Assembly: GCA_902594855.1 (NCBI GenBank)
Contig: CACJNS010000002.1
Coordinates: 18,003 to 82,002 of the forward strand
Length of the DNA stretch: 64,000 nt
From: an uncultured SAR86 cluster bacterium
Lineage (GTDB): Bacteria > Pseudomonadota > Gammaproteobacteria > Magnimaribacterales > AG-339-G14
Direction of reading: 5' to 3'
Part shown: positions 1,251-63,089 of the stretch, piece after piece
Position numbering within the stretch: the stretch's first letter is position 1
How the letters are laid out: every line of letters begins with the position of its first letter
The notes under the pieces: model-generated
What the model was told of the DNA's origin: nothing
Seen by the model: the letters and a program-made list of their open reading frames with translations, nothing else
Database searches by the model: none
Position numbers and translations under genes: made by a program

Positions 1251-2756
1251 TTACGATTGAGACAATAGGTAATTAGTTAAGAGTGGAACAGGTCTTCCTT
1301 TAGAGGCTTTGGCTTTTCCAGAACCATGAGCTGTCCCAGCTACATCAAGATGCGCCCAAGGATACTTTTTAGTAAACCTTGAAAGGAAACACGCAGCAGT
1401 AATTGTTCCAGCTCGCCCACCAATGTTGGCTATATCAGCAAAATTACTATCTAAATCACCTTGATATTCATCCCATAGAGGCAATTGCCATGCTTTGTCC
1501 ATTGAAGCATGACCAGCATCTATTATTTTGTCGGCTAATTTCTGATTATTACTCATCAAACCTGAAGCAACATGACCTAAAGCTACTATCACTGCTCCAG
1601 TTAATGTCGCTATATCTATGACATTTTTAGGTTTAAATCTTTCTACATAGGTGAGTGCATCGCAAAGAACTAATCGTCCTTCTGCATCTGTATTAAGTAT
1701 CTCCACAGTTTGCCCAGACATTGTTTTAACAACATCTCCAGGTTTGGTTGCCTTGCTGCCAGGCATATTTTCAGCAGAGGCGACTACTCCAATGATATTA
1801 GACTTTGGTTTTATCAAAGCAATAGCCTCCATGGTTCCTAGAACGCTCGCAGCCCCACTCATGTCATATTTCATTTCATCCATTGCTGGACTTGGTTTTA
1901 AACTTATTCCGCCAGTATCAAAAGTTATACCTTTTCCAACAATAACTTCCGGTTGTTCTGTTTTTTTACCACCTTTGTACTCGATAATAATGAACTTAGA
2001 TTCTTGTACACTCCCATTTCCAACAGACAAAAGACAATGCATTCCAAGCTTTTCCATTTCTTTTTCACCTAGAACTTTCACAGATAGATTTTTATATTTT
2101 CTTCCAAGCTCTTTAGCTGTATTTCCAAGGTAAGTGGGCGTACAAATATTTGCAGGAGTATTGCCAAGCTCCTTCATTCTGTTTATACCAACACCTATGT
2201 TAGTCCCAATAGATATTGATTTTCTTAGATCGGTAATATCCTTTTTGGAGTTAACAAGTAAATTTACGGACGTAAGAATATTATTTTTTTGTTCTTTTTT
2301 TCCATCAAAAATATATTTATAAGTCGATGATTCCAATTGCATTGAAAGGTTTTGCAAGAACCAAGAAAAATCTCTTTTTTCAAATTTAATTTCTGGAAGA
2401 AACAAAGAAACTTTTTTTGTATTTGCAGTTTTTGCTAAGGTGCAAATCTTAGTTATCAACTTCGATGCACCATCATCTTTGAATTTATCTGACGTATTAC
2501 CTAAACCTAATAAGAAAAACTTTTTATCTTTTTGATCCGCTAGGGCGGGGATATAACAAGAAGTATTAACTTTTCCTGAGAATTCTTTTCTTTTTATCAA
2601 AGTGTTCATTAGGCCCTTAGAAGCCTTATTGAATATATTTTTACTGGATTGAGAGTTGCCGTTTTCTTGAATACCAATAATAAGAGTTTCGTTTTTATCA
2701 GAAAGCATCTCATTTGGAGAAGTTATAGATAGGTTTATTTTTAAATTTGATGTCAT
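1251..2756 (-). CDS. pepA: leucyl aminopeptidase (M17)
   Basis: GKGITFDTGG, MKYDMSG, NTDAEGRL and WAHLDVAG motifs. Confidence 0.97.
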   Translation of the reverse strand: MTSNLKINLSITSPNEMLSDKNETLIIGIQENGNSQSSKNIFNKASKGLMNTLIKRKEFSGKVNTSCYIPALADQKDKKFFLLGLGNTSDKFKDDGASKLITKICTLAKTANTKKVSLFLPEIKFEKRDFSWFLQNLSMQLESSTYKYIFDGKKEQKNNILTSVNLLVNSKKDITDLRKSISIGTNIGVGINRMKELGNTPANICTPTYLGNTAKELGRKYKNLSVKVLGEKEMEKLGMHCLLSVGNGSVQESKFIIIEYKGGKKTEQPEVIVGKGITFDTGGISLKPSPAMDEMKYDMSGAASVLGTMEAIALIKPKSNIIGVVASAENMPGSKATKPGDVVKTMSGQTVEILNTDAEGRLVLCDALTYVERFKPKNVIDIATLTGAVIVALGHVASGLMSNNQKLADKIIDAGHASMDKAWQLPLWDEYQGDLDSNFADIANIGGRAGTITAACFLSRFTKKYPWAHLDVAGTAHGSGKAKASKGRPVPLLTNYLLSQS

Positions 2757-2814
2757 TTATTACTCCTTAGTAAGCCAAATTTCTGTGGGATAATATCACC
2801 ATAGACAAATTAAA

Positions 2815-3981
2815 ATGTTCAGCATTATATCTAAGTATATTATCAGAAGCTTCTTACAGACTTTTTTAGTTATATTCTCAGTACTATTTTTAGCCTTTTT
2901 CTTTCTAAGAAGCATTGATTTCCTAGAGATTGCAGCCAGAGGAGATATGTATCCACAAATTGCCTTGGGTTATATATTTTTTAACATTCCAAGTGTTATT
3001 GAGATTATTCTCCCTTTGAGCATCTTCCTCTCAACTTTAATTTGCATTGCAAGAATGAACACAAGCAATGAAATAAATTTCATGAGGCAGATGGGGTTAA
3101 AGAGCGGTAACTTTCTTAAAATCCTTGCAATACCAATACTGTTAATGTCTTTTTTTGCACTATTTATATCTCTGATAGTCTCTCCTTATTCTCTTGACTC
3201 TTTGTACAAGCTTACAAGTAATCAAACTTTCTCTGATAGATTCAAAATGATGGGGGCAGGCAAGCCTACCTACTTTGAGGATGTGAATACTACCTTTTTT
3301 GCCAAAGAATCTAATGACTTTGATTTTGGATTCAGTGAAATATTTGCATCAATTGAACATGAGGATATGGAGATCATTTTAACGGCAGATCAAGTTTCTT
3401 CTATACCCACTGACAAATCTACCAATAGATTAACTTTTAAGAATGGGAAAATTGTTGGCCTAGAGATGGAGGGAGACTTTTTGATGAACTTTTCGCACCT
3501 AGAATTTACTTTTCCCAGAAAAATTAAAACCTCATCGACCGATCTAAGTCATCTTTCAATTACTGGCTTGATCTCAAATTTAGAGAATAATCGAGAACAA
3601 TCAGAACTTTTTAAAAGGCTATCAATTTTTGTATTAATTATTGTGAGTGCCTTCGTTGCTCTCAATTTTGGAATTTCAAATCATAGAATTGGCTTTACAG
3701 TATCGTTAATTACCGGATCGTTATTCTTTTTGCTTTATTTTGGTATTTATTTAGGTTTGCAAAACTGGACGCTATCTTCTGAGTACAATCCATCTATTTC
3801 TTTTGCTGCTTTTCACTTCGTATTTTTTTTGGCAGGTATTTTCCTTAGTTATTTTCTTAATAAAGAGTCACCCATAAATATTTACAGTAGTGGAGTAACT
3901 TCAATAAATAACTTCCAATTAATATTTAATCTAGCTCTTCTGATTTTTGTAATTTATATGTTTTTTTACTTTTTAATCTAA
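2815..3981 (+). CDS. lptF: LPS export ABC transporter permease LptF
   Basis: YjgP/YjgQ topology (3 TM, periplasmic domain, 3 TM); divergent from pepA. Confidence 0.85.
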   Translation: MFSIISKYIIRSFLQTFLVIFSVLFLAFFFLRSIDFLEIAARGDMYPQIALGYIFFNIPSVIEIILPLSIFLSTLICIARMNTSNEINFMRQMGLKSGNFLKILAIPILLMSFFALFISLIVSPYSLDSLYKLTSNQTFSDRFKMMGAGKPTYFEDVNTTFFAKESNDFDFGFSEIFASIEHEDMEIILTADQVSSIPTDKSTNRLTFKNGKIVGLEMEGDFLMNFSHLEFTFPRKIKTSSTDLSHLSITGLISNLENNREQSELFKRLSIFVLIIVSAFVALNFGISNHRIGFTVSLITGSLFFLLYFGIYLGLQNWTLSSEYNPSISFAAFHFVFFLAGIFLSYFLNKESPINIYSSGVTSINNFQLIFNLALLIFVIYMFFYFLI

Positions 3982-5001
3982 ATGTTTAAAAGTTTATTTG
4001 ATATAACTGGTGTGCTGATACAGCTTTCAATCCTCAAAAGCATAGGTTTGGTTTTTCTGATCCTTTTTTCTCTTGATTTCATTCTAATGATGGTGGGTGA
4101 GTTACAAAATATATCCGATTATCAGAATTTTGAATCTTTTATAATTTCTTTAACTTTTAGTCTGCCTAAAAGAATTTATGATGTGGTCCCTTTGGCCTGT
4201 TTGATTGGCGCAATAGTTTCATATGGAAGACTTCAAGAGTCTGGAGAACTGATTGCCATAAGGGTTTTGGGAAAATCTTTCAAACAAATCTTCTCTTCAA
4301 TGCTTCTTCCAATATTTATCCTCTTATCAATAATGCTCATGATAGGGGAATTTGTTATTCCAAGTTCAAATTTGATGTCTGAAGTTTATAAAACAAATCC
4401 TCAGCAAGCGCAAAAAGCTCAGTGGTTAACGAGAAAGAATGAACTCATTTACCTAGGTGATATATCTAGCGATAAAATTGATAATTTAAGAATTTATGAA
4501 TTTAACTCTGAAGGAGATATTGATTCAGTTTTTAAAAAAGATGAGTTTGATCTTTCGCTCGATCAAAAAGAAGCATTTTTTAAAGATAGAGCTTCCGATA
4601 ATCAAATACAAAAAATATGGAAAGCTCCTTCAAAAATTGAGCTTTCAAAATACATTAAATTAAACAGACAACCTCCATCTTTGCTTTTTCAGAATTTTAA
4701 ATTTTCAGATAGCACCAGAGAGAAGAACTTATTTCTGTGGCAGTTTTTAAAAAAAATTATACAACCAATATCTGTCTCAATTTTTGTGTTGTTAGCCCTC
4801 ATCTTTTGCCAAGCATTCTTAAGAGATTATTCCATCACTTATAAGGTACTCACAGGAGTGGTTTTAACAATATTTTTCAACTTTACAGAAAAAATAGCGG
4901 GGAACGTCTCCATCGTTTTTGGCTTCAGCCCACTTATAACTACTTTTATTTTTCTTCTTGGGCTTGTAAGTCTTATTTTTCTATTCAGTAAAAGACTTTA
5001 A
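3982..5001 (+). CDS. lptG: LPS export ABC transporter permease LptG
   Basis: LPKRIYDVVPLACLIGA and GELIAIR motifs; second YjgP/Q gene. Confidence 0.85.
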   Translation: MFKSLFDITGVLIQLSILKSIGLVFLILFSLDFILMMVGELQNISDYQNFESFIISLTFSLPKRIYDVVPLACLIGAIVSYGRLQESGELIAIRVLGKSFKQIFSSMLLPIFILLSIMLMIGEFVIPSSNLMSEVYKTNPQQAQKAQWLTRKNELIYLGDISSDKIDNLRIYEFNSEGDIDSVFKKDEFDLSLDQKEAFFKDRASDNQIQKIWKAPSKIELSKYIKLNRQPPSLLFQNFKFSDSTREKNLFLWQFLKKIIQPISVSIFVLLALIFCQAFLRDYSITYKVLTGVVLTIFFNFTEKIAGNVSIVFGFSPLITTFIFLLGLVSLIFLFSKRL

Positions 5002-32182: not shown

Positions 32183-32983
32183 TTATTTATTAAGTTCATC
32201 ATATATCGGAGACTTGTCTAAACTTCTTGTTACAAAAAACTTACAGTTAGTCGGAACTTTCGTTGCAATTGTATACGCCTCTTCTGAAGAATTAAAATTT
32301 AAATACATTGAAGAGCCAGTTCCAGATAATTCTACAGTTCCATATTGAGACATGAGGTTAAAAATTTCATTTATTTCTGGGTATACTTTTCTTGCAAAAT
32401 ACTCAAAATCATTTTTTAAATGTTTTGGAAAATCTGTCTTATTTTCTTCATAAAACTTGAATGCATCAGCCGTGGATATTTTTATATCTGGATAGATAAT
32501 TAAATAATAGTTTGCCTCTATTTCAATATTTTCAAGTAATTCGCCTCTTCCTTTAGCAACAGAATTTTCTCCTTTTATGAAAAAAGGAACATCGCTTCCT
32601 AGACTAAGTCCAATTTTTAATAACTTACTGTCTGGTAAATTTAATTTAAAAAGTTTATTTAGAGCGATCAATGTAGAGGCACAATTTGAACTTCCACCCC
32701 CTAAGCCTGCACCAATTGGTATATTTTTCTGTACTTTAAATGAGAAATCAGATTTTTCATGGCATAAGTTTTTCATCAAAAAATAAGCTTTTGTAATTAG
32801 ATTATCTTCAGTTTTAATCTCATCATTATTGATGTTAAGTTGGAAATTTTTACTTTCTTTTATTTCAAGATAATCATACAAAGATATTAATCTGAACTCA
32901 GTTTCAAGATCATGATAGCCATCAGGTCTCTTTGAATTTATTTTCAGACCAATGTTTAACTTCGCTGGACAGGAAACTTTCAT
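32183..32983 (-). CDS. ispE: 4-diphosphocytidyl-2-C-methyl-D-erythritol kinase
   Basis: PAKLN, GYHDLET, KNIPIGAGLGGGSS, LGSDVPF and SGTGS motifs. Confidence 0.96.
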   Translation of the reverse strand: MKVSCPAKLNIGLKINSKRPDGYHDLETEFRLISLYDYLEIKESKNFQLNINNDEIKTEDNLITKAYFLMKNLCHEKSDFSFKVQKNIPIGAGLGGGSSNCASTLIALNKLFKLNLPDSKLLKIGLSLGSDVPFFIKGENSVAKGRGELLENIEIEANYYLIIYPDIKISTADAFKFYEENKTDFPKHLKNDFEYFARKVYPEINEIFNLMSQYGTVELSGTGSSMYLNFNSSEEAYTIATKVPTNCKFFVTRSLDKSPIYDELNK

Positions 32984-33495
32984 TTATTTATCAAAATCTT
33001 AAGTTTATAAAATGGATTAGTTGCAACTAATTTATCCGTATCTTCTTGAGCGTCGGATATTTTTTCAACAAGGATAGAATCTTCTATTATTTCTAGAAGT
33101 TTGCAGTCTCCAGATAAGCAATCTCTGTAGTACCAATCCACTACAGAATAAAGTGTAAAAATTAATTTATCATTCTTTTGAATTATTTCTTCTGCTTTGC
33201 TTCTAAAGGAATTATTGACTAGTAATTGATATGTATTTTTATTTTTGAACACAAGGCTGAATTTTGGATAGAACCTACTACTTTTAAAATTTATTATTAA
33301 TTTTTCTTTTTGTTTTAAAAAACTGACTTTTCCGTTAAGGAAAGATTCACTTGTTGTAAATGAAAAATTTGCATCTAAAAAATCTCTATCATTTTTTGAA
33401 GTAATTAAGTCATCTTTAACAGTTGCACAAGATGAAAGATAGGATACTAAAATAAAAATAAGTAGAATTGACCTCAGGATTGAATTTTTATTCAT
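32980..33495 (-). CDS. outer-membrane lipoprotein, probably a highly diverged LolB
   Basis: Lipobox-like LSSC. Position directly upstream of ispE is the usual lolB site, but the sequence is not clearly recognisable. Confidence 0.5.
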   Translation of the reverse strand: MNKNSILRSILLIFILVSYLSSCATVKDDLITSKNDRDFLDANFSFTTSESFLNGKVSFLKQKEKLIINFKSSRFYPKFSLVFKNKNTYQLLVNNSFRSKAEEIIQKNDKLIFTLYSVVDWYYRDCLSGDCKLLEIIEDSILVEKISDAQEDTDKLVATNPFYKLKILINK

Positions 33496-46268: not shown

Positions 46269-46279
46269 CTCAAGAAATT

Positions 46280-46996
46280 TTAAGTTAAATTTTCGCCTAA
46301 ATAAATTTGTTGAACGGTATTATTTTCTTTAATGCTGGAAGGATTACCCGATGCAATTATTTCTCCATTATTAATAACCGAAATATTGTCACAAATATCC
46401 ATTGTTGCTTGAGCATTGTGATCACTTATAACGACACCGACATTTTTGGCACGAAGTTTTGAAATAATATTTTTGATTTCATTTATTGTTAATGGATCAA
46501 TCCCTGCAAAAGGTTCGTCTAATAAAATAAATTTAGGTTCAAGTGCAAAAGCTCTGGCTATCTCAAGTTTTCTTCTTTGGCCGCCCGAAAGATTTTCGGA
46601 GATTTGTTTTTCTAAACTAAGAAGATCAAATTCTTTCATTATGCTTGTATATTTATCTTCTATTTCAATATTTTTGAATTTAGTCTGCAGGGCAGCTTTA
46701 ATATTATCTGCAACTGATAGTTTTCTAAAAACAGATGGTTCTTGTGGCAAATAAATTATCCCTTTTGAAGCTCTAAAAGAAATATCCCTGAAAGTAATAT
46801 CGTATTCATCAAGAAAAATTTTTCCTGAGGTAGTGATCTCCAAACCAGAGATTAAAGAAAATAAAGTAGTTTTCCCTGCACCGTTAGGTCCCAGTAGACC
46901 AAATACTTCAGAGCTTCTTATTTGAAGATTGATCCCGTGTAAGATTTCTTTTTTCTTAAAGCTTTTTTTAATATTTTTGAGTTCAAGAGTTTTCAC
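46280..46996 (-). CDS. lptB: LPS export ABC transporter ATPase LptB
   Basis: GPNGAGKTT, YLPQEPSVFRKL, LSGGQRR, DEPFAGIDP and SDHN motifs. Confidence 0.95.
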   Translation of the reverse strand: MKTLELKNIKKSFKKKEILHGINLQIRSSEVFGLLGPNGAGKTTLFSLISGLEITTSGKIFLDEYDITFRDISFRASKGIIYLPQEPSVFRKLSVADNIKAALQTKFKNIEIEDKYTSIMKEFDLLSLEKQISENLSGGQRRKLEIARAFALEPKFILLDEPFAGIDPLTINEIKNIISKLRAKNVGVVISDHNAQATMDICDNISVINNGEIIASGNPSSIKENNTVQQIYLGENLT

Positions 46997-47702
46997 TTTT
47001 GATCCTCAAATTTTTCGAATTTAAAATGCTGTTATTTTCATAGTCAAAAACGATATCTGCACCAGAGATATTTTTCCCATCAATATAAATGCTTGATGTT
47101 CCAGAAAGATATAAAAGCTTTCTTTTTAAATCTATTTTAATTTCATTAGAAAGCCCTTTAAAAATATTCTTTTTAGCAAAACTTATAGGATTTCCAGACA
47201 CAGAAATCAATTCATCAGACAAAGAAACTTCTTTCCCTGAAAAGGTAATATCATTGTGGTTCAGATTCAGATTATTTGAACTTAAATATTCTTTATCAAT
47301 ATCTACAAAAACTTTTTCTGCAAAAAGCTCTATCTTTTCTTTATCTTTGATAAGGTTCACATTTATTTTTTCTGATAGATCAAACTGATTACTCTCAAAG
47401 AAAAAAACACCCTTATTTGCAGACAAGTTTACTAGATAGCTATCTTTATTATTTATTTCAATTTTAGGTTTGAAGATTGATAAGTTATCGGAATTAGAGA
47501 GAGCATTAATCATCTCGCTTTCGATGGTGTAAAGAATTTCTTTATTCTTTGAAGAAGCTCTAATTTCAATTTCTTTTGCATTGAAAATTGAAGAATTATT
47601 TTCTTTTGAGGAAAGAGACTCATTTTCAATTGTTATAAAAAGAAACGAGCCTGTTAGCGCTAATGCTAGGACACAATAAACAATTAATCTCCATCCCATC
47701 AA
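46983..47702 (-). CDS. LptC-like protein with an LptA-like C-terminal half (apparent fusion)
   Basis: N-terminal TM plus LptC-like jellyroll, then SGNPISF...LYLSG...ISGADIVFD resembling the LptA C-terminus. Sole gene between kdsD and lptB. Confidence 0.7.
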   Translation of the reverse strand: MMGWRLIVYCVLALALTGSFLFITIENESLSSKENNSSIFNAKEIEIRASSKNKEILYTIESEMINALSNSDNLSIFKPKIEINNKDSYLVNLSANKGVFFFESNQFDLSEKINVNLIKDKEKIELFAEKVFVDIDKEYLSSNNLNLNHNDITFSGKEVSLSDELISVSGNPISFAKKNIFKGLSNEIKIDLKRKLLYLSGTSSIYIDGKNISGADIVFDYENNSILNSKNLRIKSENS

Positions 47703-48667
47703 AATACTCTTGATTCATTCAACTCATGCATCCTTATGACACCAATAACTTTTTTTTGATTTTTTACAACCAAGCTATAGATTTTATTCTTGGACATGAT
47801 CTCTCTAGCTAAGTAGGCATTTTTATTATGCTCAATGCTTTTAAAAGATTTTGTCATTACTTTTGATATTGATAAATTTCTTATATCGATTTTTTTATTA
47901 AGAGTTCTTCTCAAATCACCATCAGTGAAAATTGCATTAATGGTTTGTTTTGAATTTTTAACTAAACAAAACCCTAAGCCAAATTGTGTAATGACTTTAA
48001 TTGCCTCTAAGATAGAAGTATTTTCTTTTACTATGGGTATTTCTTTAATATCAATCATTAGATCTTTCGCAAGGAGAAATCTTTTTCCTAATTTCCCGCC
48101 TGGATGATTCTCTGCAAATTCTTTTGGACTGAATCTATTATTTTTTAGTAATGCAATAGATATTGCATCCCCTAATATAAGCATGAATGAAGTGCTTGTT
48201 GTAGGTGCTAAATTATTTGGACAAGCTTCTTTATCTACTTTTGCTTCTAGATGTACCAGTGATTTTTTGGCAATAGAAGACTCTTTATTGCCAGTAATTG
48301 AAAGAATATTCTTTGTCTTTTTTATGAGGCCGCTAAGTATAAAAACAATTTCATCGGTTTCGCCTGAATTTGAAATTATCAAAATTCCATCACTTTTGGA
48401 AATAGCTCCAAGATCACCATGACTAGCTTCTGATGGATTAATAAAAAAAGAAGGAGTGCCAGTGCTTGATAAAGTAGAAGAAATTTTTGCAGCAATGTGG
48501 CCTGATTTACCAACACCCATCAAAACTAATTTTCCCTTAAGATTTTTTATATTATTGCAAATTGAATTGAAATCTTTTTTAGATAGACAATCTAAAGAGT
48601 GATTTATTGATGAAATTTCATCCTTAAAAGTTTTTTTAGCATGAATGAAAAAGTTATTTGTAGTCAT
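47699..48667 (-). CDS. kdsD: arabinose-5-phosphate isomerase
   Basis: GVGKSGHIA, EASHGDLG, EACPNNLAPTTS and HPGGKLG motifs, CBS pair. Confidence 0.95.
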   Translation of the reverse strand: MTTNNFFIHAKKTFKDEISSINHSLDCLSKKDFNSICNNIKNLKGKLVLMGVGKSGHIAAKISSTLSSTGTPSFFINPSEASHGDLGAISKSDGILIISNSGETDEIVFILSGLIKKTKNILSITGNKESSIAKKSLVHLEAKVDKEACPNNLAPTTSTSFMLILGDAISIALLKNNRFSPKEFAENHPGGKLGKRFLLAKDLMIDIKEIPIVKENTSILEAIKVITQFGLGFCLVKNSKQTINAIFTDGDLRRTLNKKIDIRNLSISKVMTKSFKSIEHNKNAYLAREIMSKNKIYSLVVKNQKKVIGVIRMHELNESRVF

Positions 48668-48711: not shown

Positions 48712-49332
48712 ATGTTAGGGAAATTTGCTTCACAGATTAATTTTATATTAATTGCATTGCTGTTATTGATTCATCCTGTCTACGCAGATGATGAATTAGA
48801 TGATTATGTCAATAATCAACATGAAAAAATATTTTCATTCTTGAAGGAAAATACCGAAATTTTGAGTGAAAACAATCGAATTGATCTTATAGAGAAAGAA
48901 TTTTCAGGACTTATTTCTATAAGCGAAATATCCAAACGGGTTATGGGTAAGAAATATTTCATGAGCGCCTCAGAGGAACAAAGAAAGAGATTTACAAACA
49001 AATTCAAGGAGACTTTTTTTAACACTTATTCGAGTGCTTTAAGTAATTTAGAGGACCAAAAAATTGAAGTAATAGGTCATGCTCATCCAAAGGATAAGCC
49101 CAATGCAGCAATCGTAAGAGTGAGAATAACATCAGGTGAGGATTCATATGATCTCAATTATCAAATGATAAAAAAGAAAAATAGATGGGGAGTTATTAAT
49201 ATAATTTTCAGTGGAGTGAATATCGTTTCTATTTTTAAGACTCAATTCTCATCTCTTGCCTCTGAATATCAAAATGATCTTGATAAAGTAATTGATAACT
49301 GGGAAATTTCAGATATTAGGCAGAATTCTTAA
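48712..49332 (+). CDS. mlaC: phospholipid-binding periplasmic protein MlaC (Ttg2D)
   Basis: Signal peptide, SKRVMGKKY...ASEEQRKRF and W.VINIIFSGVNIVSIFKTQF; upstream of murA. Confidence 0.85.
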   Translation: MLGKFASQINFILIALLLLIHPVYADDELDDYVNNQHEKIFSFLKENTEILSENNRIDLIEKEFSGLISISEISKRVMGKKYFMSASEEQRKRFTNKFKETFFNTYSSALSNLEDQKIEVIGHAHPKDKPNAAIVRVRITSGEDSYDLNYQMIKKKNRWGVINIIFSGVNIVSIFKTQFSSLASEYQNDLDKVIDNWEISDIRQNS

Positions 49333-50598
49333 ATGGATAAATTGGTCGTCGAGGGCGGTTTTCAGCTTAATGGTTCTATCACATCATCCGGAGCAAAAAA
49401 TTCTGCCTTGCCAATCCTAGCTGCATCAATTCTCCTCGATGACACAATAATTATAAAAAATATTCCGCATCTTAATGATGTCACAACTATGCTTGAATTG
49501 CTTGGTTCTATGGGGGTCGATATGACTTTATCTGAAGACATGGAAGTGGAATTAGATCCATCAGGTTTGAATGATGTAGGTGCAAGATATGAATTGGTAA
49601 AAACAATGAGGGCATCCGTGCTAGTTTTGGGGCCTCTTTTAGCAAAAACTGGCTACGCTAAAGTAGCTCTTCCAGGCGGATGTGCAATCGGCAGTCGCCC
49701 AGTCAATCTTCACATTGATATTATGAAGAAAATGGGCTCACAAATTTTTATAAAAGATGGATACATAGAGGCGAAGTCTAAGGGTAGGCTTAAAGGTTGT
49801 GAGTTTCACTTTGATCTTGTAAGCGTGACTGCAACTGAGAATGCTCTTATGGCAGCATGTTTGGCAGAAGGAAAGACAATACTCAAAAACTGCGCAAGGG
49901 AGCCAGAGGTATCTGATCTAGCAAATTGTTTAAATTATTGCGGTGCAAAAATATCTGGAATTGGATCTGATGAACTGGTTATTGAAGGAGTAAAAGAATT
50001 ACACGGAACATCTTTCTCAATAATGCCTGATAGAATCGAAACTGCAACATATTTAGTTGCAACCACTATGACAGGCGGTGAGATTACTATTAAGAACTGT
50101 CAACCAAATTCCTTGGGCGCAGTAATTACTAAATTAGAAGAGGCTGGAGCTAATATAATTTGTAGTGATAATGAAATTAATTTAAAAATGAAAGAAGATT
50201 TACCAAAATCAACTTCTCTTAGCACCGCACCGTTTCCTTCATTTCCAACAGATATGCAAGCACAGTTCATAGCCCTGAATTCCATTTCCAATGGGTCTGC
50301 AACTGTTACTGAAACTGTATTTGAAAATAGGTTTATGCATGTAAATGAACTCATAAGAATGGGAGGAGACATAGAACTGAGGGGAAATACTGCCTTTATA
50401 AAAGGCAAAGGCAGGAAATTAATCGCAGCTCCGGTAATGGCTACAGATTTAAGAGCTTCAGCTAGTCTAGTCTTAGCAGGCCTTGTTGCCAAAGGAGAAA
50501 CTTTAGTTGATAGGATTTATCACATTGATAGAGGATACGAAAGAATCGAGGAAAAACTTAAGCTTTTGGGCGCAAAAATAGAAAGGATTTCAGCATGA
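49333..50598 (+). CDS. murA: UDP-N-acetylglucosamine enolpyruvyl transferase
   Basis: [23 protein letters not shown] (catalytic Cys retained), FPTDMQ and HIDRGY motifs. Confidence 0.99.
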
Positions 50599-59697: not shown

Positions 59698-60180
59698 TTG
59701 ATGGCTATAGGACTTTATGGATACAGTAGTTTGGCATTGGATTCTAAAGGACGAATTGCAATGCCAGCAAAGTATAAAGAAGCTTTAAAAGAAGTTTCAG
59801 AGGGTTCTTTGGTCATTACTAGGGACCCACAATATCCTTCCTTAAGAATCTATCCAGGCAGTTTATGGAAAACCATATCGAAAGCTTTTGAAAACTTATC
59901 TGGCCTAGATTCAAAAATTAGATCTATTCAGTGGAATTTTCTTGGATATGCAAATTTAATTGATTTTGAAGTCAATGATCGGATGCAAATACTTATTCCT
60001 CAAAGCTTAAGAGATTACGCTCAATTAAAAGTTAAAGAAAAAGTATCTTTGATTGGTATGGGTCAGAAATTTGAAGTATGGAATGAAAAAAATTGGCTTG
60101 CAAAAGAGAAAGGTCAACAAATTCAAGGTGAAAAATTAGATATCGACTTACCTTCTAACGTCCAGGAGATCCCTTTTTAG
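59698..60180 (+). CDS. mraZ: division/cell-wall cluster transcriptional repressor MraZ
   Basis: LDSKGRIAMP, ILIPQSLRDYAQL and FEVW motifs; start TTG 59698 or ATG 59701. Confidence 0.92.
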   Translation: MMAIGLYGYSSLALDSKGRIAMPAKYKEALKEVSEGSLVITRDPQYPSLRIYPGSLWKTISKAFENLSGLDSKIRSIQWNFLGYANLIDFEVNDRMQILIPQSLRDYAQLKVKEKVSLIGMGQKFEVWNEKNWLAKEKGQQIQGEKLDIDLPSNVQEIPF

Positions 60181-60184
60181 CATC

Positions 60185-61039
60185 ATGTTCACTCATCAGC
60201 CAGTAATGATCAACGAAACTATTAAAAATTTAGTTCATGATCCTGCCGGCACTTATTTAGATTGTACTTTTGGCTTAGGGGGACATTCAAAAAAGATTTT
60301 AGAAAACCTTAACGATAATGGCCGATTAATTGCAATAGACAGAGACAAAGAAACTGTCTTGTATTCACAAAAAATAAAAGACAAAAGATTTCATTTTAAA
60401 AATCTAAATTTTTCAAAAATTGAAAGTTTAGATACAAGACTAGACGGTATCTTTTTTGATCTAGGGAATTCTTCTATGCAATTAGATGATCCAGAAAGAG
60501 GATTTAGCTTTCAAAAGGATGGTCCTCTTGATATGAGAATGAACAAAGAAGAGGAAATTACAGCAGAACAATGGATAAATACTGCAACAGAGAAAGAAAT
60601 AAGTGACGTCTTATTTCATTTGGGCGAAGAGCGAAAATCTAGGTTTTATGCCAGGAAAATTGTTGAATCAAGAAAAAAGACCAAGTTTAAAAGCACAGCA
60701 CAGCTTTCTTTATTTATTCAGAAATATAGCAGTTCACAAAAGCGTCATCCAGCAACTAATGTATTCAGAGCAATAAGAATGCATATAAATAATGAAATTG
60801 AAGAGATGATCAATGGATTTAAATCAGCAGCTTGCCTACTCAAGCAAAATGGAAAATTAATCATCATAAGCTTTCATTCCATAGAAGATAGAATAGCTAA
60901 AAACTTTCTCAGATCAGAGGAAGCAAAAAATCTTAATCTTAAAAAGCAAGGAAAGCCTATTAAGCCAACAAATAATGAAATTAAGTCTAATCCGAGATCA
61001 AGGAGCGCAATAATGAGAATTGCGATAAAAAATGTTTAA
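60185..61039 (+). CDS. rsmH: 16S rRNA C1402 N4-methyltransferase
   Basis: HQPVM, DCTFGLGGHS, QLDDPERGFSF, PLDMRM, SFHSIEDR and NPRSRSA motifs. Confidence 0.97.
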   Translation: MFTHQPVMINETIKNLVHDPAGTYLDCTFGLGGHSKKILENLNDNGRLIAIDRDKETVLYSQKIKDKRFHFKNLNFSKIESLDTRLDGIFFDLGNSSMQLDDPERGFSFQKDGPLDMRMNKEEEITAEQWINTATEKEISDVLFHLGEERKSRFYARKIVESRKKTKFKSTAQLSLFIQKYSSSQKRHPATNVFRAIRMHINNEIEEMINGFKSAACLLKQNGKLIIISFHSIEDRIAKNFLRSEEAKNLNLKKQGKPIKPTNNEIKSNPRSRSAIMRIAIKNV

Positions 61040-61310
61040 TCAAATGATATTGATATTTATTTTAGGATCTCTGATTTCTGCTTTTTTTAGTTCCTGCTTA
61101 GTTTTGAACAAGAATGCTAGTTACAAGCAATTAGTCTCAGAAAAGTATCTTTTAAACGACTATAAGTCAAAACTAGATGAGGAATCAGTTTATCTCAAGA
61201 ATAAGATATTAAATCTAACTTCTCACAATTCAGTAAAGGAAAAAACGGTTGACGAATATGGAATGATTTTGCCTGAATCCGTTCTTTTGATTCAAGGAGC
61301 AGAAAAGTGA
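61032..61310 (+). CDS. ftsL: probable cell division protein FtsL
   Basis: Single TM, coiled coil and YGMILP tail; immediately follows rsmH. Confidence 0.7.
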   Translation: MFNQMILIFILGSLISAFFSSCLVLNKNASYKQLVSEKYLLNDYKSKLDEESVYLKNKILNLTSHNSVKEKTVDEYGMILPESVLLIQGAEK

Positions 61311-61858
61311 AATTCTTAACTTTCATTGTAATGATTTTTTCTTCAACCTTTGTTTTATCCGAAGTTTTTGAAGACCCAAAACCTTTGTTTTCAAAACATA
61401 ATCCTAACTTTGTTGAATCATCTAAGGAAGTCAATTCTTGGCCAATAAAAAGATTGCATGTGAAAGAATTTCAACCTCTTGCTTTTTGGGGAAAAGACCA
61501 GATACTGACCCAATCTGGTCGCCTCCTCAAATTTAAAACAAAAGAAAATTTGAAGTTAGTTAATATTGAAGCAAACAGAAATAATATTGACTTTGTCTTA
61601 AGGTATTTTTTTGAGCTAAATCAAATTTTGAAAGGATCTAACTTGGTTCTTAATAGAATTCTAATTGAAGAGTTTGATTTAATGACCTTAGAGGATAATT
61701 CCGGCATAAGGTTTCACATGAATAAATCAAAAATAGAAATTCAATTAGAAAACCTTAAAACATTCCTGAAGAGCGAATACTTTAACAACATAAAAGATAC
61801 CTTTTCATATTTAGATTTAAGGTATCAAAACAAAGGAGCAATTGGGTTAAGGGATTAA
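61307..61858 (+). CDS. ftsQ: truncated FtsQ/DivIB (beta domain, most of POTRA missing; GTG start)
   Basis: WPIKRLHVKEFQPLAFW...SGRL and C-terminal YLDLRYQNKGAIG; directly upstream of ftsA. Confidence 0.8.
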   Translation: MKFLTFIVMIFSSTFVLSEVFEDPKPLFSKHNPNFVESSKEVNSWPIKRLHVKEFQPLAFWGKDQILTQSGRLLKFKTKENLKLVNIEANRNNIDFVLRYFFELNQILKGSNLVLNRILIEEFDLMTLEDNSGIRFHMNKSKIEIQLENLKTFLKSEYFNNIKDTFSYLDLRYQNKGAIGLRD

Positions 61859-61859
61859 T

Positions 61860-63089
61860 ATGGCCAGCAACGGATCAAATAACATCAGAGTAGGTATTGA
61901 CATAGGCACCTCGAAAGTCGTGTGTCTAATCGCTGAATATGTTGATCACGAATTACGAGTTATCGGCTTAGGAAGCCAAACTTCTCAAGGTTTAAAAAAC
62001 GGTGTGATTGTTGATATTGAATCAACTGTATCCGCAATAGAATCCGCGGTAAATGATGCAGAATTGATGTCTGGAAAACAAGTTACATCAGCTTTTGTAG
62101 GTATAAGTGGAGGTCATATAAATGGTTTAAATTCTGAAGGTGTTGTAGGTATTAAAGATAAAAAAGTCAAAGTTAGTGATGTTGATAGAGTCATCACTGC
62201 CGCACAAGCATATGCTATTCCAGATGACTCTCAATTGCTTCATGTTCTGCCAAGAGACTACATTATTGATCAACAAAATGGCATTAAAGAACCTCTTGGA
62301 ATGGCTGGCGTCAGACTGGAGACCAAAGTTCATTTAGTCACCTGTAACAGGAACTCTGCTCAAAACATATCCTCTTGTATGAAAGCTTGTGGTATTACTG
62401 TTGAAGGATTTGTTTTGGAGCAACTAGCGTCAAGTTACTCCGTCCTATCAGAAGATGAAAAAGAGCTGGGAACGTGTTTAATTGACATGGGCGGTGGAAC
62501 TTCAGACGTTGCAGTTTTTCAAAATGGAGCGATAAGTCATACAGCTAATATTCCAACTTCAGGCGATCATATTACTAAAGACATTGCTAGAGCGCTTCAA
62601 ACTCCAAGTATGCAAGCAGAAGAACTTAAGAAGAAGTATGGCTGTGCTTCAAGCTCGATAATTCATGAGAATGAAACAATTGAGGTTCCAGGTATGGCAG
62701 GAAGAAAAAATAAAATTTTCTCAAGAATGGCCCTAGCCAGTGTAATAGAGCAAAGGTATTTGGATATTTTTGGCTTAATAAAACAAAAACTTAACTTATC
62801 TTCTTTAGAAAATAATATTCCCGCTGGGATTGTAATCACAGGTGGAACATCCAGAATGGAAGGAGTAGCTCAATTAGCAGAGGAAGTTTTTAATGCTCCT
62901 GTTCGTATTGGTTCGCCATCAGGATTGATAGGATTGAGCGATATTTTAAGGAATCCAATATATGCAACTGCTGTAGGGTTGGTTTTATATAGCCAGAAAT
63001 CACAAGAAGAAGACCATATGAACTATCTGTTCATGAAAGATAAGAACATTTTTAACAAAGCTTTTAGATGGATCCAAAACAATTTCTAA
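61860..63089 (+). CDS. ftsA: cell division protein FtsA
   Basis: GIDIGTSKV, IDMGGGTSD and VITGGTSRMEG motifs, C-terminal amphipathic helix. Confidence 0.98.
   Translation: MASNGSNNIRVGIDIGTSKVVCLIAEYVDHELRVIGLGSQTSQGLKNGVIVDIESTVSAIESAVNDAELMSGKQVTSAFVGISGGHINGLNSEGVVGIKDKKVKVSDVDRVITAAQAYAIPDDSQLLHVLPRDYIIDQQNGIKEPLGMAGVRLETKVHLVTCNRNSAQNISSCMKACGITVEGFVLEQLASSYSVLSEDEKELGTCLIDMGGGTSDVAVFQNGAISHTANIPTSGDHITKDIARALQTPSMQAEELKKKYGCASSSIIHENETIEVPGMAGRKNKIFSRMALASVIEQRYLDIFGLIKQKLNLSSLENNIPAGIVITGGTSRMEGVAQLAEEVFNAPVRIGSPSGLIGLSDILRNPIYATAVGLVLYSQKSQEEDHMNYLFMKDKNIFNKAFRWIQNNF

Follow-up and report, generated by a model that had tools for sequence, protein, structure and literature searches.

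In the 64-kb stretch of SAR86 (Magnimaribacterales) DNA analyzed here, which we call the window, one gene encoding a transmembrane (TM)-anchored protein fills the slot of lptC and lptA, as a reading made from the DNA letters alone (the sequence-only reading) had claimed; it lies between kdsD and lptB. The N-terminal part of this 238-amino-acid protein appears nearer to LptC and its C-terminal part nearer to LptA; the direction was the same with the NCBIfam models, with a profile search of the PDB and with hhalign, at modest significance and with an ambiguous junction. The gene may have arisen by an in-frame fusion of lptC to lptA that replaced the soluble LptA, an origin for which we consider the balance to be even.

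Gene structure, conservation and fold

The open reading frame (ORF) 46983..47702 on the minus strand was present as claimed, with its start corrected by one codon downstream. Homologues of its product (>170 clusters at 90% identity; hundreds of copies in metagenomes) are nearly all 238 amino acids long and have MGWRL as their first residues; because all of them begin there, the true start is the ATG at 47699 and not the TTG at 47702 chosen by the ORF caller. The strings quoted in the sequence-only reading (LSANKG, DLSEKINV, ISVSGNPISF and GLSNEIKIDLKRKLLYLSGTSSIYIDGKNISGADIVFD) were all found in the translation. The ATG of the lptC-like gene and the TGA of kdsD overlap by 1 nt. At its 3′ end the lptC-like gene overlaps lptB, whose GTG start is located 14 nt within it. 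The gene is translationally coupled to both neighbors.

A KdsD-based scan of species-representative genomes yielded 14 SAR86 single-cell or metagenome genomes with a KdsD 89–98% identical to that of the window. Below these loci the identity dropped to 45%, with Thioglobus (kdsD-murE), KpsF paralogues and Bacteroidota, and only two Burkholderiales loci gave the canonical order lptC-lptA-lptB; these served as controls. An intact ORF of the same size occupied the lptC-like position in 14/14 SAR86 genomes, and the 238-codon gene could be extracted intact from 13 of them. The ratio of nonsynonymous to synonymous substitution rates (dN/dS) was 0.15 overall, with pairwise values of 0.10–0.17 in every segment (TM/linker, N-terminal, middle and the C-terminal 59 residues). 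The gene is thus functional and under purifying selection along its whole length. The family is isolated: phmmer, run exhaustively against 1.84 billion representatives, returned just 23 matches to the protein and no paralogue of it. The records of its homologues at NCBI, and most of those at JGI, carry the name LptC.

AlphaFold2, run on the protein with a 45-sequence alignment, gave a model with a mean predicted local distance difference test score (pLDDT) of 84.6, and of about 90 over the periplasmic part. The N-terminal TM segment claimed in the sequence-only reading appeared as a helix at residues 3–27, with the hydrophobic stretch LIVYCVLALALTGSFLFITI in the translation. It is followed by a disordered or low-confidence linker (residues 28–37) and by 17 consecutive β-strands (residues 38–235), which form an unbroken Lpt-type β-jellyroll of ~200 residues. 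The topology is therefore bitopic as in LptC, with one N-terminal TM helix and the remainder predicted to be periplasmic. Foldseek against the PDB matched the model to the LptC chains of LptB2FGC (E 2e-5), E. coli LptA, P. aeruginosa LptH and the LptD N-domain, and the better superpositions covered ~120–135 columns at about 3 Å. Since solved LptA and LptC chains have about 125–143 ordered residues, a jellyroll of ~200 residues corresponds to ~1.5 canonical domains, not two; in place of an LptC with a recognizable second domain, as had been supposed, the model shows one continuous jellyroll. The AlphaFold2 model of a 187-amino-acid relative had a pLDDT of 46.7, too low for use.

The LptC models Pfam PF06835 (31.5 bits against a cut-off of 21; model positions 2–138 of 175) and TIGR04409 (38.7 bits against a cut-off of 38, a marginal score; model positions 2–157 of 180) both recognized the protein just above their cut-offs, as expected from the LptC-like N-terminal region described before. 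They align to residues 5/11–143/155, and an LptC model was matched by 43 of the 45 members of the family alignment. Its scores against the hidden Markov model (HMM) cut-offs, its topology, its fold and its place in the operon all assign the protein to the LptC family. Like LptC (YrbK), it is anchored by one N-terminal TM helix, has an Lpt jellyroll in the periplasm and is encoded between kdsD(/kdsC) and lptB. Unlike LptC of E. coli, it has 238 instead of 191 amino acids and ~200 jellyroll residues instead of about 125–140 ordered ones, its last 80–120 residues score with LptA, and no lptA gene follows.

We also considered that the gene might be an annotation or assembly artefact, or a pseudogene decaying after loss of the Lpt pathway. 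Its length is indeed unusual, and two short chimeric contigs carry its C-terminus. Given the same-size ORF in every SAR86 genome scanned, the hundreds of metagenomic copies, the low dN/dS, the confidently predicted fold, and lptB, lptF, lptG and kdsD intact in the window, the probability of such an artefact is negligible.

Affinity of the C-terminal part for LptA and length classes

The NCBIfam LptA model TIGR03002 aligned residues 118/160–226 of the protein to model positions 20/56–123 of 142 with 17–23 bits. This match persisted when the last 88 or the last 124 residues were submitted alone, and it was found in 41 of the 45 family members (E from 1e-3 to 4e-7 at best). When the family profile was compared with all PDB sequences, the top matches were nine LptA/LptH sequences (E 0.02–0.4) and no LptC. 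The register was constant, with ELISVSGNPISF corresponding to EVIDGYGKPATF, GLSNEIKIDLKRKLLYLSG to GHASQMHYELAKDFVVLTG and NISGADIVF to NIKGDKITY, and GNPISF of the lptC-like protein aligns with GKPATF of LptA. In hhalign, residues 156–238 reached P=0.0014 and 0.018 with two LptA alignments; with an LptC alignment of the same species P was 0.12, and with reversed controls about 0.3. Unit B, the last 59 residues (see below), gave P=0.005 against LptA and 0.22 against LptC. Read by eye, ~7 of 12 positions invariant in the LptA alignment are identical in the lptC-like protein, and 3 are conservative.

As controls we used canonical LptC proteins from E. coli and from the two Burkholderiales, the latter taken from kdsD-kdsC-lptC-lptA-lptB loci. 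None of the three gave an LptA match, either whole or as C-terminal fragments, and all aligned to the LptC model end to end; the LptA resemblance of the SAR86 protein is therefore specific. The E. coli LptC and LptA sequences used were validated by matches of 364 and 368 bits to E. coli-level NCBIfam models. A profile search with LptA retrieved no sequences other than LptA of Burkholderiaceae and brought no gain in hhalign, and single-sequence phmmer searches with E. coli LptA and LptC, like small local HMMs, were too insensitive to inform, also with regard to further OstA-like ORFs.

The protein resembles LptA (YhbN)/LptH in its fold and in being encoded in the region immediately upstream of lptB, and its residues ~160–226 are in register with the C-terminal half of E. 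coli LptA (GKPATF...EGHASQMHYE...LTGNA...IKGDKITY). Unlike LptA, which is free and soluble, the LptA-like region makes up the C-terminal portion of a polypeptide with a TM anchor; it carries no separate signal peptide and scores far below the family cut-offs. Judged by score threshold and by the soluble secreted form, the protein is not an LptA-family member. The resemblance to the C-terminal half of LptA on which the sequence-only reading relied thus proved reproducible and specific with respect to the LptC controls, but the scores are weak: in the HMM and hhalign domain check LptC lay above its cut-off and the LptA/OstA match was present below it. Of the LptC-LptA fusion proposed there, the single gene with an LptC-like front and an LptA-scoring back stands, with sub-threshold LptA scores and one jellyroll on the other side.

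The alignments to the LptC and LptA models overlap over residues 118–155, and hhalign also lays residues 88–235 collinearly on nearly the whole LptA alignment (P=0.009). The junction can therefore be placed only within ~118 to ~165, and the LptA-type portion may range from the C-terminal half only to most of a domain. With a junction anywhere in this interval, the loss of the N-terminal edge of LptA asserted before is not supported as stated.

We divided the jellyroll into Part N (residues 38–117), unit A (118–179, with GNPISF) and unit B (180–238, with the motifs GLSNEIKIDL..LLYLSG..ISGADIVFD and the conserved last strand ILNSxNLRIK). Distant full-length relatives (25–34% identity) fall into two shorter classes. 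Proteins of 185–187 amino acids consist of Part N and unit B (z=12.3 and 6.7) and have no unit A. In proteins of 210 amino acids, Part N and unit A (z=10) are followed by no more than the first strands, or half, of unit B. A bridge of fixed length, as inferred in the sequence-only reading, is contradicted across lineages by this 185/210/238-amino-acid series, whose members differ by whole strand blocks. Internal tandem duplication as the origin of the extra length was rejected: units A and B showed no similarity (z=1.0) and hhalign of the protein against itself found no repeat, so the extra length does not stem from a recent internal duplication.

Two observations concern the ends of these proteins. 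In P0155 and P0156, members of the 210-amino-acid class related to L088:10001-10633, the stop is read through and 13 extra residues extend into the lptB start region. The last ~55 residues also occur on unrelated N-termini, one of them with a signal peptide, in two singleton contigs of 773 bp (L090) and 1023 bp (L091). We judged the proteins concerned, P0130 and P0132, to result from chimeric assembly; were they real, they would represent secreted mini-proteins bearing the LptA-like unit.

Gene neighborhood and alternative explanations

In all 14 SAR86 genomes, and likewise in three divergent relatives, kdsD, the lptC-like gene and lptB follow one another with no other gene in between. In all length classes, one strand carries hisD-hisG-murA-mlaC and the other kdsD, the lptC-like gene, lptB and then mgtE (absent at the 210-amino-acid loci), with mreDCB and gatCAB next along. 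The operon of the window contains no kdsC, lptA or rpoN, and mgtE follows lptB after a gap of 11 bp (46269–46279) that holds no rpoN stump. Compared with murA-mla / kdsD-kdsC-lptC-lptA-lptB-rpoN, the canonical gammaproteobacterial block as mapped in E. coli, the SAR86 region is a collinear, deleted copy worn down in place. At the 185–187-amino-acid loci, an ORF of 75–76 amino acids between lptB and mgtE has only a Sigma54 DNA-binding domain (PF04552) and looks like an rpoN stump; the persistence of such a remnant downstream in some loci argues for decay of the block in situ.

No lptA was found in the operon or within 7–10 kb on either side of it in the 14 SAR86 genomes and the three divergent relatives, in a search of low sensitivity, nor was an OstA-like ORF found among the scanned proteins of the window. 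For these places, and with this sensitivity around the loci, the lack of a separate lptA implied by the sequence-only reading holds. The lipopolysaccharide (LPS) pathway is in use in SAR86: kdsD, lptB, lptF and lptG are intact in the window, and lpxB and lpxK are present across the SAR86 genomes in the marker table of the isolate paper (PMC11582366). The same table has no OstA/LptA marker and is hence silent on lptA (PMC11582366).

Several findings weigh against a fusion that replaced LptA. The TIGR03002 scores of 17–23 bits are far below the cut-off of 71.7, PF03968 (OstA/LptD_N) reaches only 12.9–14 bits against 20.4 for the 238-amino-acid protein, and the hhalign probability against LptA is <20%. 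LptC and LptA are paralogues made of repeated hairpins, and since E. coli LptA itself matches the LptC model at 21 bits, cross-talk of ~20 bits between the two families does occur. The 185-amino-acid relative P0138, which carries unit B, aligns weakly to the LptC model over 2–168, and unit B could therefore be the C-terminus of LptC itself. Its 187-amino-acid cousin P0137 has no LptC match and passes the gathering score of PF03968 on its C-terminal part (21.5 bits), which makes the discrimination between LptC and LptA thin. Moreover, the 185- and 210-amino-acid relatives also have no lptA in the operon, and their jellyrolls are no longer than that of canonical LptC; such short jellyrolls are hard to square with a bridge over a set distance unless a further component exists.

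These points bear first on the possibility that the protein is a long, fast-evolving LptC and that a normal soluble LptA, encoded elsewhere, completes the usual LptC-LptA-LptD stack, with the LptA-like scores reflecting common ancestry or repeats. Only LptC models pass their thresholds here, in line with the database names, cross-family matches of about 20 bits exist and the hhalign probabilities are low. The lack of an operon lptA also in relatives of canonical length (185 amino acids) suggests that the missing gene concerns the whole clade and has nothing to do with the extension, and LptA counts as essential in those model organisms that have been studied. On the other hand, the collinear deleted block and the putative rpoN stump point to loss in situ and not to relocation, no OstA-like ORF turned up among the window proteins scanned or, in scans of low sensitivity, in the 7–10 kb around the loci of the relatives, LptC controls never match LptA yet 41/45 members of this family do, and the exhaustive phmmer search found no paralogue of the protein. 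On this evidence we regard a relocated lptA, the main rival of the fusion, as rather unlikely. If a separate lptA exists, the finding shrinks to an unusually long, modular LptC.

Alternatively, SAR86 could have no LptA at all and an LptC, lengthened or shortened by β-hairpin blocks of its own, that contacts LptD directly, its strands not being derived from lptA. The length classes (N+B, N+A+half B and N+A+B) differ by whole strand blocks, which shows that this jellyroll tolerates modular insertions and deletions; P0138, with N+B, aligns to the LptC model as described, and by eye the last strand ILNSxNLRIK could fit the C-terminal motif of either family. However, no similarity was detectable between units A and B or elsewhere within the protein, and for the C-terminal part LptA outscored LptC by all methods tried, which leaves this explanation improbable.

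Table 1 Positions of the lptC-like gene, its parts and associated features (window coordinates; entries beginning with L refer to loci of relatives)
Feature	Position	Strand	Evidence
lptC-like gene with LptA-like C-terminal part (238 amino acids + stop)	46983..47699	-	ATG start, overlaps with kdsD stop and lptB start, dN/dS 0.15
TM anchor (residues 3–27), then low-confidence linker (28–37)	47619..47693	-	AlphaFold2 helix; hydrophobic LIVYCVLALALTGSFLFITI
Part N (residues 38–117), LptC-like first half of jellyroll, common to all three length classes	47349..47588	-	PF06835 and TIGR04409; alignments with 185–211-amino-acid relatives
Unit A (residues 118–179), covered by LptC model (to 155) and LptA model (from 118 or ~160)	47163..47348	-	HMM, PDB profile, hhalign
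Unit B (residues 180–238), LptA-like C-terminal strands	46986..47162	-	TIGR03002 to model position 123, PDB LptA matches, hhalign
kdsD (arabinose-5-phosphate isomerase), first gene of the operon	47699..48667	-	Profile matches
lptB (LPS export ATP-binding cassette ATPase), directly downstream	46280..46996	-	TIGR04406 289.9 bits
LptF/LptG-family permease, presumably lptF (position beside divergent pepA)	2815..3981	+	PF03739 144.7 bits
LptF/LptG-family permease, presumably lptG	3982..5001	+	PF03739 119.1 bits
Sigma54_DBD-only ORFs	L084:11258-11485, L085:11258-11485, L086:11257-11487, L087:10097-10327		PF04552

Other parts of the window also carry envelope genes. At 1251–5001, two genes for permeases of the LptF/LptG family (388 and 339 amino acids) lie divergent from pepA, and the inner-membrane LPS exporter is therefore encoded in the same window. 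Beside murA stands a single mlaC, 45 bp from the divergent kdsD (48712–50598); mlaB, ibaG and mlaDEF, which flank mlaC in E. coli, are not in place. A predicted lipoprotein of 171 amino acids (lipobox LSSC; 32980–33495, minus strand) without a Pfam match lies upstream of ispE-prs-rplY-pth-ychF, a position occupied by LolB in other Gammaproteobacteria, and is probably a very divergent LolB. Finally, mraZ, a 284-amino-acid ORF that is a putative rsmH, a short FtsQ-like protein (183 amino acids) and a 409-amino-acid ORF are consecutive at 59698–63089, and the ftsL/ftsI/mur genes usually found between them are missing from this region, which suggests that the dcw cluster is heavily reduced.

A proposed periplasmic arm and its implications

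If lptC and lptA were indeed fused, the protein would serve the LPS export machine of SAR86 as its periplasmic arm, anchored in the inner membrane. Its TM helix would tether the single ~200-residue jellyroll to LptB2FG, the LptC-type N-terminal strands would dock on LptF/LptG and take up LPS, and the LptA-type C-terminal 80–120 residues would offer an edge for the N-terminal jellyroll of LptD. At most, the protein would work like LptC plus part of LptA. We propose that an in-frame deletion in a SAR86 ancestor joined lptC to lptA within a kdsD-kdsC-lptC-lptA-lptB-rpoN operon during genome streamlining, and that later lineage-specific in-frame losses of strand blocks gave rise to the 210- and 185-amino-acid versions in more reduced lineages. 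LPS would then move along a covalently anchored LptC-A chimera, and no free oligomerizing LptA would take part. LptA self-associates head-to-tail; such self-association is not expected here, because the N-terminal edge of LptA is either missing or continuous with LptC-type strands.

Taken to its full extent, this proposal amounts to a six-gene Lpt machine without soluble LptA, in which the anchored chimera forms the whole span between LptFG and LptD and has been trimmed stepwise (238, 210 and 185 amino acids). We put this forward tentatively, as a serious possibility that falls somewhat short of an even chance. The literature describes the Lpt bridge as a machine of seven proteins. A precedent for a jellyroll stack that works with one module fewer comes from E. 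coli LptF suppressor mutants, in which a six-component Lpt machine without LptC is reported to be functional (PMC4986956). Those mutants are laboratory strains that have no LptC and keep LptA, whereas SAR86 appears to have an LptC-type anchor and no separate LptA. Our literature search found no report of a natural LptC-LptA fusion, of LPS-producing bacteria without LptA, or of Lpt in SAR86. The LptC-LptA and LptA-LptD contacts are the targets of thanatin-type antibiotics.

If true, a six-gene machine would imply a distance between inner and outer membrane that is shorter or more flexible than in E. coli; the narrow periplasm suggested in the sequence-only reading is speculation. SAR86 is described as one of the bacterial groups that are most abundant in surface waters of the global ocean (PMC11582366). 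Replacement of LptA by an extension of LptC would define a smaller Lpt architecture that works, reveal which jellyroll edges in the stack are indispensable and bear on the need for free or oligomeric LptA in setting the length of the bridge. It would also connect the geometry of the envelope with the streamlining of the genome in a dominant bacterium of the ocean, of which a culture exists (HIMB1674).

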